Below, piece after piece: positions 2,338 to 6,175 of a DNA stretch of 13,657 nt; positions within the stretch are counted from its first letter, which is position 1; every line of letters starts with the position of its first letter. Location: the UHGV virus genome UHGV-0069434; one strand, given 5' to 3'. This DNA comes from a virus. Made by a program: the position numbers and the translations under genes. The notes beneath the pieces were generated by a model. That model made no database searches, was not told where the DNA came from, and saw nothing but the letters and a program-made list of their open reading frames with translations.

Positions 2338-2700
2338 TTAATGACCTGCTGCGCGTAGTTTTCCGTCAGGTTCACCGGCAAGAGTCAGTAATTGTCCCTG
2401 GTCTTCCTGCAGAATAGTCAGGCGACCACCGCGATTGACATACATCGGCGTTTCGGTGGTGTCTTCTTCGGAAATTTTCCCGCGGTTAGTTGGGCGAACA
2501 TATGAGAGTTTGTGTTTGATTTTCACACGGTTCTCATCAAACGGTTCGATTTCCAGGTTGAGCGAGACCTTACCTTTGGTTTTCGTGTTCATCACACCGG
2601 AAGCGACTTCACTGAGAACTGCGCCGAGTTTGGTTTCAAATACGCCGCCGTCCAGCTCCCCGATAAATGCCTGCACATCAGTACTGCGTTCGCTAGCCAT
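2338..2700 (-). CDS. yfdP: Hypothetical phage early protein, 120 aa (YfdP-like); first gene of the leftward early operon
   Basis: Track ORF 2338..2931 (197 aa) has a long N-terminal extension. Internal ATG at 2700 (MASERSTDVQ...) is preceded by AGGAG 7-8 nt upstream and gives exactly 120 aa, matching CPS-53 YfdP length from memory. The upstream extension runs through a structured inverted-repeat region. Confidence 0.55.
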   Translation of the reverse strand: MASERSTDVQAFIGELDGGVFETKLGAVLSEVASGVMNTKTKGKVSLNLEIEPFDENRVKIKHKLSYVRPTNRGKISEEDTTETPMYVNRGGRLTILQEDQGQLLTLAGEPDGKLRAAGH

Positions 2701-2748
2701 TTTGCTGCTCCTCATCATATCGACCCTGCAAGGTCGGTTGGTTTCTCC

Positions 2749-2837
2749 ACAAAACAGAGAAGAACACCTGCGGTGACTGCCGCCCGGATGGATTGGGTTA
2801 TGAGCCCGTCGTCCGGTGATTCTCTTCTCTGTTTTGT
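2749..2837. repeat. Perfect 15-bp inverted repeat (ACAAAACAGAGAAGA at 2749..2763; TCTTCTCTGTTTTGT at 2823..2837) separated by 59 bp, in the leader upstream of the yfdP-like gene
   Basis: Read directly from the sequence; the arms are exact reverse complements. The spacer contains further short inverted repeats (CCGG-rich). Confidence 0.6.
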
Positions 2838-3308
2838 AAAAAGAGCGGTACCAGCCGGAAGCAAGGGTACAAACTGGTACCGCCAAAGCAGTGGCTGTTG
2901 TGGTGGGGTTGTCACTCAGGCGTATGGTCAACCTGACAATCCGGTGCCCTCAACGGGGAAAGAGTAACCCCGCCATACTTACCGCCGCGCCATTTCGCGG
3001 ATTACCACAACGCTGAGAGCACTTAGCCAGTTACGGCACCACACTTTGTCGCGGCTCCATAAATGCCCTCATCGTTGCACCCTGGTCTCTTCCCAGGCGT
3101 CAAACCGAATCGCCACGCTGGTTAGGCGTCTTATCAGCATCATCATTGACTTGCACATTCCGGCTACCTGGTTTGTTTGCCCGAGCAAGGAGTGGATTGT
3201 CCCCTTTAACGTCCCCAGACCGCTAACGACGCATGTGCCATACGCCGTGTTACAACCAAATTTTGTTAGTACCTTGTTTGTTTGTCTGGAAAGAAAGATA
3301 AAATGAAG

Positions 3309-3323
3309 TTGCGCATTATGCAA
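3309..3323. promoter_or_regulatory. Operator site OL-a: TTGCgcattatGCAA (TTGC-N7-GCAA palindrome)
   Basis: 15-bp site with palindromic ends read directly; the same architecture recurs at 3333..3347 and 4092..4106, flanking the repressor gene on both sides. Confidence 0.5.
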
Positions 3324-3332
3324 GTGTTTTTG

Positions 3333-3347
3333 TTGCGAGATATGCAA
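3333..3347. promoter_or_regulatory. Operator site OL-b: TTGCgagatatGCAA
   Basis: Second copy of the TTGC-N7-GCAA motif, 9 bp from OL-a. Confidence 0.5.
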
Positions 3348-3361
3348 TTTAAAGGGTAATG

Positions 3362-3383
3362 AAAAGCCACCTTTGGGTGGCTA
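3362..3383 (-). terminator. Intrinsic terminator downstream of the cI-like repressor gene
   Basis: Minus-strand transcript: AGCCACC-caaa-GGTGGCT hairpin (7-bp GC-rich stem) followed by TTTTCATT, about 20 nt after the repressor stop codon (3403..3405). Confidence 0.5.
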
Positions 3384-3402: not shown

Positions 3403-4071
3403 TTAATTGTGTCGCTTAAGGGTTTGTGACCGTCTGATTAAGACCTTTCCAAAGACCATAAACCGGTGTTCATTTTCGCTGGTAATTCCCCATTCACGGT
3501 AAATCTGGTTATCAGAAATCACCAGTAGTTTGTCAGGTATCATTTGCAGTCGTTTGACATAAATTTTATCATCAAAACCAAATACATAGATACCATCTCC
3601 ATCAAACTGATTGATACTGACATCAACGAAGATGAGATCTCCTGGCTCAATGGTTGGACACATACTGTCCCCACGAACGTTGATAACTTTAATGTGATTG
3701 GCTGGCCGTCCGCCAAACATCGATACAGCATTATCAGTTCTGTATTCAATGGCATGAATCACATCAATGACATCACCGCCCTGGATAAGGCCATTTCCCG
3801 CACTGGCACTGACATCCAGCATTTCAATACGGAATACATCCTTCACCTGCGCAACATCCTCACTAATACTGTTTTTACATACAGTATTACTTTTGACGTC
3901 TGAGGTAAAGAGATCAGCAATATCAACACCTAAGCTCCTGGCAATATTACTCAGGGCTTGTTCAGTGAATTGTTTCTGCTTACCTGTTTCCAGTCCTATT
4001 GCTTCAGCGAGATCGGCGATTTTCATGTTCTTCGCCTGGCGAAGTTGTCTGACTCGGTTTCCTATGTTCAT
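3403..4071 (-). CDS. cI-like prophage repressor, 222 aa: N-terminal XRE-type HTH plus C-terminal S24 (LexA-like) autopeptidase domain
   Basis: N-terminus NRVRQLRQAKNMKIADLAEAIGLETG is a typical HTH; C-terminus has the S24 motif VRGDSMCPTIEPGDLIFVD and a candidate Ala-Gly cleavage site (SASAGNG). Divergent from a cro-like gene, with operators on both sides. Confidence 0.85.
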   Translation of the reverse strand: MNIGNRVRQLRQAKNMKIADLAEAIGLETGKQKQFTEQALSNIARSLGVDIADLFTSDVKSNTVCKNSISEDVAQVKDVFRIEMLDVSASAGNGLIQGGDVIDVIHAIEYRTDNAVSMFGGRPANHIKVINVRGDSMCPTIEPGDLIFVDVSINQFDGDGIYVFGFDDKIYVKRLQMIPDKLLVISDNQIYREWGITSENEHRFMVFGKVLIRRSQTLKRHN

Positions 4072-4168
4072 GCGTTTATTACATTTCTTTATTGCGCGTT
4101 AAGCAAATCAACTTGCGCAAAATATTTGCGTGAAATAATATGCTCATCACGCAATATGTGGAGGTCAT
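4072..4168. promoter_or_regulatory. OR region with divergent promoters (pR-like rightward for cro; pRM-like leftward for the repressor)
   Basis: Perfect operator TTGCgcgttaaGCAA at 4092..4106; palindromic TTGCGCAA at 4113..4120; weaker ATGCtcatcacGCAA at 4140..4154. Rightward: -35 TTGCGC (4113..4118), 17 nt, -10 TAATAT (4136..4141), then GGAGG before cro ATG 4169. Leftward: -35 TTGCTT (rc of 4101..4106), 17 nt, -10 TGTAAT (rc of 4078..4083), which places the start at or next to the repressor ATG (leaderless, as for lambda pRM). Confidence 0.5.
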
Positions 4169-5308: not shown

Positions 5309-5328
5309 AGGTCGGTCATGAGCACTAA
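5149..5328 (+). CDS. Small protein, about 59 aa, alternative frame ([58 protein letters not shown])
   Basis: TTG at 5149 is preceded by AAGGAG (5135..5140) at 8-nt spacing. The translation has balanced, protein-like composition. Track lists the frame from GTG 5107, which lacks an SD. Stop overlaps the replication gene start by 11 nt. Confidence 0.4.
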
Positions 5329-6175
5329 ATTAACCGGCTATGTATGGGATGGTTGCGCTGCGTCAGGCATGAAATTATCCAGCGTGGCAATTATGGCCCG
5401 CCTGGCTGATTTCAGTAATGACGAAGGTGTGTGCTGGCCATCAATTGAAACTATTGCCCGTCAGATTGGCGCGGGGATGAGTACCGTCAGAACGGCTATC
5501 GCACGGCTGGAAGCAGAAGGCTGGTTAACGCGTAAGGCGCGTCGCCAGGGTAACCGCAATGCGTCGAATGTTTATCAGCTTAACGTTGCGAAGCTTCAGG
5601 CAGCGGCATTTTCTCAACTGTCAGATTCTGACCCGTCAAAATCTGACGCATCAAAATCTGACACGTCAAAATTTGATGTGTCGAAATCTGGCAAAAAAGC
5701 GGGTTTTCACCCGTCAGAATCTGGCGGGGATCCGTCAGTAAAATCAAAACAAGATCCACAAGTAACTTCAAAACCCTCTTGTCCGGTTGCGGCGCAACCC
5801 GACCCTGAAGTTGTGATTACCGACCAGGCAATTTTGGTTCTGACCCATTTGAACCAGATCAGCGGATCCCGGTATCAGAAATCAAAAACATCCCTGGAGA
5901 ACATCCGCGCCCGACTGCGTGAGGGATACAGCGTTGCAGACCTGCAACTCGTTATCGACCTGAAGCATGAGCACTGGCACGAGAACGACGAGCAGTACCA
6001 GTACATGCGGCCGGAAACGCTGTTTGGCCCGAAGAAATTCGAGAGCTATCTGCAAAGCGCTACCCGCTGGGATCAGAAGGGACGGCCTAAACGCGCTGAC
6101 TGGGGTGCGAAAAAGCGCGATGTGATGGCTTTTGGTCCGGTTGATACAACGATTCCAGAGGGGTTCAGAGGATGA
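5318..6175 (+). CDS. Phage replication initiator / replisome organiser (lambda O-like role), 285 aa
   Basis: N-terminal HTH-like region (VAIMARLADFSNDEGVCWPSIETIARQIGAGMSTVRTAIARLEAEGWL). C-terminal region (LTHLNQISGSRYQKSKTSLENIRARLREGY...HEHWHENDEQYQYMRPETLFGPKKFESYLQSA) resembles the conserved phage replication-protein C-terminal domain. Tandem iterons lie inside the gene. Confidence 0.7.
   Translation: MSTKLTGYVWDGCAASGMKLSSVAIMARLADFSNDEGVCWPSIETIARQIGAGMSTVRTAIARLEAEGWLTRKARRQGNRNASNVYQLNVAKLQAAAFSQLSDSDPSKSDASKSDTSKFDVSKSGKKAGFHPSESGGDPSVKSKQDPQVTSKPSCPVAAQPDPEVVITDQAILVLTHLNQISGSRYQKSKTSLENIRARLREGYSVADLQLVIDLKHEHWHENDEQYQYMRPETLFGPKKFESYLQSATRWDQKGRPKRADWGAKKRDVMAFGPVDTTIPEGFRG
5621..5726. 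repeat. Tandem 15-bp iteron-like direct repeats (core GTCAAAATCTGAC), putative phage origin of replication inside the initiator gene
   Basis: Read directly: CCGTCAAAATCTGAC (5633..5647), GCATCAAAATCTGAC (5648..5662), ACGTCAAAATTTGAT (5663..5677), GTGTCGAAATCTGGC (5678..5692), plus partial copies at 5621..5632 and 5711..5725. Each core has internal dyad symmetry (GTCA...TGAC). The repeats encode SKSD-type peptide repeats and generate the repetitive ORF artefacts at 5559..5771. Confidence 0.55.

Follow-up and report, generated by a model that had tools for sequence, protein, structure and literature searches.

What is encoded in the 590 bases between the early-left promoter pL and yfdP in a common type of Escherichia coli prophage? 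The DNA analyzed here, called the window, is a stretch of 13,657 nucleotides from the virus genome UHGV-0069434 and is a CPS-53/KpLE1-type lambdoid prophage. A preliminary description had regarded the interval as one regulatory leader and proposed that it may encode a put-like antitermination RNA, a regulatory RNA, or a structured 5' untranslated region (UTR) of the early-left genes. On the minus strand, these 590 bases are a modular array of five conserved folded RNAs. The order from pL is the core, H6, module C, a terminator-ended small RNA, and module E. The earlier view stands in that the interval is non-coding, structured, and a source of regulatory RNA, but the single leader gives way to five separately conserved modules. 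The half that bears both of the hairpins originally pointed out is homologous to the dicF locus of K-12. The preferred reading, held to be moderately probable, is a non-coding RNA array like the Qin dicF region with an extra, uncatalogued RNA at its 5' end. Among prophage small RNAs, DicF is a classic one, and the RNA that surrounds it has hitherto been regarded as mere precursor. In a common type of E. coli prophage, the early-left leader is a mosaic of independently conserved RNA modules.

Setting and coding content of the interval

The minus strand of the window carries yfdT to yfdP, the pL-yfdP interval, and an S24/HTH CI-like repressor gene (3403-4071). The plus strand carries cro-like, CII-like, and replication genes, methylases, RusA, an antirepressor, and the Q antiterminator. 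Between yfdP and the repressor gene, RefSeq has no annotation. The promoter called pL is putative, recognized by its sequence, and scores 8/12, which is under the threshold of the consensus scanner. Its elements are as follows.

3295-3347, minus strand: putative pL region with operators; the direct repeats are present in the sequence
3323 to 3318, minus strand: putative -35 element, TTGCAT, with a 17-nt spacer to the -10 element
3300 to 3295, minus strand: putative -10 element, TATCTT, with the start near 3288
3308-3323 and 3332-3347: two 16-nt operator repeats, direct, overlapping the putative pL

Three reading frames are present in the interval. These are a 92-aa open reading frame (ORF; 3069-3347, minus strand), a 66-aa ORF (2715-2915, minus strand), and the yfdP frame, which is open up to 2931. 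Small proteins could be encoded by either ORF or as an N-terminal extension of YfdP. Every interval ORF, however, is broken by stops or frameshifts in homologues of ~85% identity, and no ORF of the interval is conserved. Indels of 3 nt and 4 nt set the core region apart from its phage relatives, and substitutions track base pairing rather than codon patterns. The ORF starts fall within the operators or have no Shine-Dalgarno sequence. Small proteins are an extremely improbable product of the interval. Judged by its homologues, coding in the interval is excluded, which agrees with its earlier designation as non-coding. The reported lack of an Arg-rich N-like protein also holds, as no gene for one is found in the window in the ORF list or among Pfam matches.

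Inverted repeats and folding

The interval contains a perfect 15-bp inverted repeat (2749-2763/2823-2837) with a spacer of 59 nt. This repeat, already noted in the preliminary description, is beyond chance. In dinucleotide-preserving shuffles of 2701-3290 (200 in all), the longest perfect repeat had a mean of 7.7 bp and a maximum of 11, and 0/200 reached 15 bp. The second hairpin is a perfect 10-bp repeat (2845-2854/2874-2883) and contains the GGTACCAG/CTGGTACC pairing noted at the same time. The CCGG-rich dyads seen in the loop of the long repeat proved to be true helices, CCGGA/UCCGG and GCGG/CCGC, with compensatory changes among homologues. Folded as minus-strand RNA, 2701-3290 has a minimum free energy of -222 kcal/mol versus -198.5 +/- 7.8 kcal/mol for shuffles (z = -3.0), and 0/100 shuffles fold as well, so the interval was rightly called highly structured. 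Covariation across homologues had been named as a check. Base-pair covariation is observed in the core, H6, and modules C and E, and a regulatory RNA in the interval is supported.

The DicF-like half of the array

In the Qin prophage of K-12, DicF is cut from a polycistronic transcript of a pL-like promoter. A 190-nt form has an RNase III-dependent 5' end (PMC10448788), and RNase E generates the 53-nt DicF. A 72-nt form results from an RNase III cut at the 3' side, downstream of the terminator. Transcripts that read through the DicF terminator have also been reported for Qin. Hfq binding and the processing of DicF by RNase III as well as RNase E are known for K-12 only.

The window from 3005 to 2838 aligns with positions 2755-2945 of the K-12 Qin locus (L156), covering the 3' strand of H6, module C, and DicF. 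By this alignment, H6, module C, and the small RNA together are homologous to the Qin region that yields the 190-nt and 53-nt forms of DicF. The synteny of a dicF locus is found as well, with an upstream module and an RNase III-type hairpin 5' of a small RNA in a prophage early-left operon. The elements of this half are as follows.

3008-3077, minus strand: H6, a long irregular hairpin, CAAC-GAU-GAGGGCAUUU ... AAGUGCUCUC-AG-CGUUG, with a covarying helix
2905-3000, minus strand: module C, ~96 nt, matching the upstream part of the DicF precursor by near-identity to K-12, with compensatory changes
2838-2904, minus strand: terminator-ended small RNA in the DicF position, with the perfect 10-bp repeat and the K-12 alignment
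2883 to 2838, minus strand: terminator of the small RNA, composed of GCGGUACCAG (2883 to 2874), a 19-nt loop, CUGGUACCGC (2854 to 2845), and UCUUUUU (2844 to 2838)

H6 is a helix that survives complete sequence replacement, e.g., GGGAGUUCCCCU/AGGGGAACUUCC and GAGCGCACU/AGUGCGCUC. Its K-12 counterpart is found at L156 2678-2758. The hairpin is closed by CAAC/GUUG, in favor of which the closing helix AGCG/CGUU drawn by RNAalifold was rejected. A boxA-like run, UGCUCUC, sits within the H6 helix. A boxA/boxC reading of GUGCUCUYNNCGUUGUGG was dropped, since the bases of this run pair within H6 and covary. For a lambda-type N/nut system, no Arg-rich N-like ORF or Pfam match is found after pL.

Module C is nearly identical to L156 2762-2860, immediately 5' of dicF, and ~75% identical to the P1 ban leader beside an annotated "dicF-like region". 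It includes the hairpin CCGCG-AAAUGG-CGCGG, a GGGG/CCCC hairpin, and the helices GGAUUGUCA/UGACAACCC and GUAUGG/CCAUAC, and compensatory changes are seen within it. The last two helices possibly form a pseudoknot. A reading of 3011 to 2897 as a degenerate tRNA was replaced by the homology to the DicF precursor.

The small RNA ends, as DicF does, in a 10-bp G+C-rich stem followed by a U tract. A simple terminator scanner did not call this terminator, owing to its 19-nt loop. The run UUUGGCGGUAYCAGUUU and the position are held in common with K-12 DicF. The Rfam DicF model (RF00039; gathering threshold of 48 bits) has no match in the window even at E <= 10, and the K-12 positive control scores 76.7 bits. 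In a crude test of pairing with the ftsZ leader (RNAduplex), the window small RNA reaches -26.8 kcal/mol versus -29.7 +/- 4.2 kcal/mol for shuffles. K-12 DicF reaches -38.5 kcal/mol versus -31.4 +/- 3.9 kcal/mol. With predicted pairing no better than that of shuffles, ftsZ is unsupported as a target of the window small RNA. By its sequence, this RNA is placed outside the DicF family, and "DicF-like" covers position and partial sequence only. Its single-stranded regions differ from those of DicF, and its targets are therefore probably different. Such differences imply a family of small RNAs that use the DicF scaffold with varied targets.

The window and Qin are alike in several respects. Both loci are early-left operons of lambdoid prophages under a CI-type repressor, and both have the order of a hairpin, a ~100-nt module, and a terminator-ended small RNA, with module C nearly identical. 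UUUGGCGGUAYCAGUUU is present in both small RNAs, and a long inverted repeat lies between the terminator and the next gene in both. Unlike in Qin, the array of the window begins ~38 nt after pL without the ydfABC genes and is preceded by the core RNA, of which the covariance model finds no copy in K-12 Qin. The 5' part and loop of the window small RNA are unlike DicF, in keeping with the failed Rfam and ftsZ-pairing tests. The stem that follows the terminator holds a different insert, module E. Judged by length, the RNase III ends of K-12 would map to the H6-like stem (2740-2758) and to the 13-bp repeat after DicF (2946-2958).

The core RNA

The core is the first module after pL and is a 173-nt RNA. 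A 161-position covariance model, R1, scores it at 138.3 bits (E = 8e-39) in the window. Its architecture comprises five helices and a pseudoknot, for which covariation provides strong support, and the following elements are placed on the window.

3078-3250, minus strand: core RNA, 173 nt, recognized by covariance model R1, without an Rfam match
3247 to 3227, minus strand: helix H1
minus strand: helix H2, a variable stem with a YCCUUG loop
3168 to 3150, minus strand: near-invariant run GGUAGCCGGAAUGUGCAAG, which served as the scan pattern; variants at its 5' end exist
3129 to 3115, minus strand: helix H4
3123 to 3120 with 3106 to 3103, minus strand: pseudoknot, AACC with GGUU
3097 to 3081, minus strand: helix H5, with a GGAAGAGA loop

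The covariation set is made up of 39 sequences that are <90% identical. Across H1, H2, H4, the pseudoknot, and H5, 96.9% of cells pair in this set, and double changes occur at 12 pairs (77 cells). No shuffle matches this (0/500), and the pairing in slid controls is 28-51%. The pseudoknot is formed by the H4 loop (CACC) and a downstream GGUG, which in five sequences are AACC and GGUU. Its variable pair is C-G in 34 sequences and A-U in 5, with 0 exceptions. A long hairpin, UCACCAUCGU/ACGGUGUGA, that would replace H4 and the pseudoknot was rejected, as covariation is seen at the H4 partners only.

Outside the scan pattern, the near-invariant runs of the core are UAUGGCACAUG, AGCGG(U/C)C, GGCGRU, and the GGAAGAG loop. 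The near-invariant runs are located in junctions and loops between variable stems. The run CCGGAAUGUGCAAG belonged to the scan pattern, and its invariance is partly due to selection.

Rfam 15 has no match over 3078-3250, either at the gathering score or at E <= 10. Descriptions of the core or of module E are found neither in Rfam nor in the searchable literature, and older papers may cover the modules that flank dicF. The core is a predicted pseudoknotted RNA that matches no curated RNA family.

HK022 put is among the closest known comparisons for a structured RNA in this position. Put RNA mediates protein-independent antitermination that depends on the zinc-binding domain of the RNA polymerase beta' subunit. 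One copy is located downstream of pL and a second downstream of pR. The core resembles put in being a structured non-coding RNA right after pL in an N-less lambdoid phage with terminators downstream. It differs in architecture, having 173 nt, five helices, and a pseudoknot, whereas put is ~70 nt with two stem-loops. The core is also present only once in the window, with none after pR, and occurs in P1 and in Uetakevirus morons. The covariance model finds no second copy anywhere in the window, the pR operon included. A blastn search (word size 7) against the HK022 immunity region, with putL and putR, gives no match, and model R1 scores 3.7 bits on HK022 (E = 3.6), which is not significant. The put idea fails in every test of sequence and architecture, and the core is placed outside the put family.

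Distribution of the core

BLAST searches against phage genomes show that a ~245-nt segment holding the core recurs in unrelated contexts. In phages P1, P7, and D6, it is located after trnI and before ban. In Uetakevirus (phiV10, SPN1S, typing phage 9, and Klebsiella phages), it is part of a moron between the terminase and portal genes, with its own promoter and followed by tRNA-Arg(UCU). Other lambdoid phages have it just downstream of the repressor gene, and the CI-like repressors concerned are of differing immunity and come from several genera. The orientation of the core is always the direction of transcription.

Among complete E. coli genomes, 1833/5426 (34%) contain the core; 554 of the places are on plasmids, and the core is annotated in none. 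A pattern scan of contigs, with one genome per species, identified 24 loci. Named isolates with the core include Kosakonia, Citrobacter, Klebsiella, Enterobacter, Buttiauxella, Erwinia, Phytobacter, Kluyvera, and relatives. Scans of viral contigs added ~200 loci, which brings the total to 182 unique sequences. Bacillota or Oscillospiraceae labels are attached to two of the 24 loci (L017 and L029). The Oscillospiraceae locus is a chance match to the 19-mer inside a coding sequence. The 1.7-kb "Bacillota MAG" contig holds a genuine copy and is probably enterobacterial contamination. Present in one third of the complete E. coli genomes and in phage P1, with clear covariation and a pseudoknot, the core is an easily testable candidate for a new functional RNA, either an antiterminator or a binder of a host factor.

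The neighbors of the core are H6-type hairpins, either on a single side or on both, or else tRNAs. Of 152 unique copies, 124 have the motif of the H6 3' strand after the core, and in 33 it stands before the core as well. What comes after the core varies and can be H6, a tRNA after H6, a small ORF, a terminator, or the ban leader.

This variation bears on a riboswitch reading, in which the core is an aptamer that senses a small molecule and controls early-left expression. The pseudoknotted fold, near-invariant junction nucleotides, variable peripheral stems, and 5'-leader position are what an aptamer would have. A shared expression platform overlapping the 3' side of the aptamer is absent, however, and in P1 the core is found in the middle of an operon. 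Rfam riboswitch models have no match, and a riboswitch is very unlikely.

Several arrangements around the core are of separate note. In mEp390-type loci (L007 1590-1760; L097, L120, L173, and L194), the core is followed by another conserved module, without H6. This module is composed of a CGCUAAGCAUC...GUGCUUAGCG hairpin and then GGGACUGGAAGAGUUACCACUUGGAGACGGUCC. In some lambdoid loci (L092 at ~5400-5600, minus strand; L160; L175), a Shine-Dalgarno sequence and an ORF of ~55-62 aa lie within ~30 nt of the core, and the small ORF replaces H6 and the DicF-type module. The Uetakevirus moron (L002 2224-2931; L006; L008; L154) occupies the gap between the large terminase and portal genes and is transcribed antisense to the late genes. 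Its order is promoter (TTGACA...TACCTT), H6-like hairpin, core, H6, tRNA-Arg(UCU), two strong terminators, and a small ORF.

The P1 ban operon and exchange of modules

The P1 ban operon (L005 640-3300) is composed of Pban, module C with a dicF-like terminator, trnA, trnT, tciABC, trnI, the core, and ban. A strong terminator is found only ~180 nt after the promoter. This operon and the window are alike in that a repressor controls the promoter of module C, with its dicF-like terminator, and of the core. The order is reversed, however, with module C and the core 2 kb apart, and the P1 core comes directly after trnI, without H6. In the P1 record, an annotation is given for the dicF-like region and none for the core.

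A further module, GUGGUGAAUGCG(G/C)...GCGC, is located after DicF in K-12 (L156 2958-2990) and directly after H6 at many loci of other prophages (e.g., L165 and L214). Its occurrence in both positions indicates that the leaders are shuffled mosaics of small RNA modules. The modules recombine among lambdoid, P1, and epsilon15-like phages.

Module E and the yfdP leader

Module E is a three-way junction. Its stem begins right after the terminator U tract, which is the position of the repeat after DicF in K-12. In K-12, the analogous stem is a 13-bp repeat immediately downstream of DicF, in which the RNase III cut that gives the 72-nt form would fall. Module E and the leader that follows it have these elements.

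2749-2837, minus strand: module E, a three-way junction folded with RNAalifold on 17 diverged homologues
2837 to 2815 (5' strand) with 2768 to 2749 (3' strand), minus strand: closing stem of ~20 bp, which includes the 15-bp perfect repeat
2807 to 2795, minus strand: tip of branch 1, GGG-CUCAUAA-CCC, above the helix CCGGA/UCCGG; a copy of the initiator tRNA anticodon stem-loop
minus strand: branch 2, GCGG/CCGC
2698-2748, minus strand: proximal leader of yfdP, with a covarying hairpin and the RefSeq yfdP annotation
2736 to 2721, minus strand: leader hairpin CGACC-UUGCAG-GGUCG
2712 to 2707, minus strand: yfdP Shine-Dalgarno sequence, GAGGAG
2700 to 2698, minus strand: yfdP ATG

RNAalifold draws 37 pairs on the 17 diverged homologues, 10 of them with compensatory changes, and the junction is kept in ~20 diverged loci. 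The hairpin of the yfdP leader also covaries (GGCGG-UUGCA-GCCGCC in other loci), and its loop is conserved.

The tip of branch 1 shares a 14-nt identity, CGGGCTCATAACCC, with E. coli metZ, made up of GGG-CUCAUAA-CCC and the preceding C. All 17 homologues have the CAU unchanged, and the three G-C pairs are each present in 15 to 17 of them. The copy is limited to the anticodon arm of the initiator tRNA, and neither ARAGORN nor the Rfam tRNA model finds a tRNA or tmRNA in the window. This anticodon stem-loop, GGGCUCAUAACCC (window 2795-2807, minus strand; L233 1388-1464), is that of the E. coli initiator tRNA. Module E also has AUCCGG in common with the tRNA T-arm and so may derive from a tRNA-fMet gene.

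Mimics of tRNA anticodon arms exist in mRNAs or leaders, e.g., the thrS operator. The module E hairpin is like such a mimic in having the initiator tRNA anticodon loop and three G-C pairs beside a translation start. It differs in that no synthetase or initiation-factor gene is near, and it may be what is left of a tRNA gene. The copy of an initiator-tRNA anticodon arm beside a start codon provides a concrete hypothesis, either translation control or defense evasion.

Module E and the hairpin before the Shine-Dalgarno sequence may be a structured 5' UTR that controls the translation or stability of yfdP. Possible partners of its initiator-tRNA-like anticodon arm are the 30S P site with IF3, MetRS, and an anticodon nuclease. 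Module E abuts the Shine-Dalgarno sequence and ATG and, in diverged loci, mostly precedes yfdP-like starts, yet at L164, L227, and L138 it stands before unrelated genes. The structure is conserved with covariation, but the analogous K-12 stem holds a different insert. The 14 nt in common with the metZ anticodon stem-loop and the CAU kept in 17/17 fit an anticodon-arm function, although this likeness could also stem from a degraded tRNA gene without present function. A yfdP UTR is a tentative possibility and is compatible with the dicF-like array as the best explanation.

Proposed processing of the pL transcript and possible function of the core

The dicF-like array suggests a scheme for the pL transcript. 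Homology to dicF is observed, as are the structures with their covariation and the occurrence of every module elsewhere, and each cleavage event is inferred by analogy with K-12. When the repressor is lost, pL would fire, and RNA polymerase would make the core (173 nt), H6, module C, and the DicF-position small RNA in that order. Many transcripts would terminate at the intrinsic terminator of the small RNA. Cleavage by RNase III within H6 would free the core and a DicF-precursor-like RNA of ~175 nt, and RNase E would trim this precursor to a short terminator-ended small RNA. Readthrough transcripts would form the ~20-bp stem of module E, where RNase III would probably cut and separate the RNAs from the yfdP mRNA.

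In the leading reading, the core would be cut out to give a separate, stable RNA whose partner would be a conserved component of the enterobacterial host. Another role would be that of a cis-acting processive antiterminator or anti-Rho RNA, put-like in action and outside the put family. Folded on the nascent pL transcript, the core would bind its own RNA polymerase, which would then traverse the DicF-type terminator and the long untranslated leader and reach yfdP, yfdQ, and int/xis. The core lies ~38 nt after the putative pL start and is the first element whatever follows (H6, a small ORF, or a terminator), in a phage with Q and without an N-like protein. Against this stand its lack of sequence or structural likeness to put and the presence of one core per phage, with the pR operon lacking any. 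On the sense strand, the region 200-500 nt downstream is enriched in strong intrinsic terminators (within 600 nt at 51/97 loci), sense ORFs dominate past the terminators (86/117 loci), and the Uetakevirus moron is closed by tandem strong terminators. The P1 core, in contrast, is 2.3 kb downstream of Pban and beyond the dicF-like terminator, in a unit that is non-essential by CRISPRi; in this literature, P1 trnI, ban, and dbn are all non-essential. Qin is without the core, yet has the reported readthrough of the DicF terminator. The near-invariant single-stranded runs outside the scan pattern suggest contact with a conserved machine, but processing hairpins or tRNAs bracket the core as if for excision. 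The position after pL, the downstream terminators, and the sense ORFs are no less consistent with a cis-acting than with a trans-acting role. Taken with the points against it, antitermination by the core is unlikely, though a serious candidate.

A wider reading joins both ends of the array and is distinctly speculative. The core would be a new RNA class that captures a conserved host machine, and module E would be a functional mimic of the initiator-tRNA anticodon arm. The target of the core could be transcribing RNA polymerase, as a put-unrelated antiterminator of lambdoid, P1, and epsilon15-like phages, or could be a different one bound by the excised RNA. Module E could serve in the control of translation initiation or as a decoy for toxins that cleave tRNA-fMet.

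Other elements of the window

An intrinsic terminator is located directly after the repressor gene (3365-3382, minus strand). The OR region (4100-4165) contains operator-like TTGCG...GCAA repeats, similar to the two OL repeats at 3308-3347. Inside the replication-initiator gene (5318-6175), positions 5606-5728 hold six tandem 15-nt iterons (TCAAAATCTGAC-like), which probably mark the phage origin.
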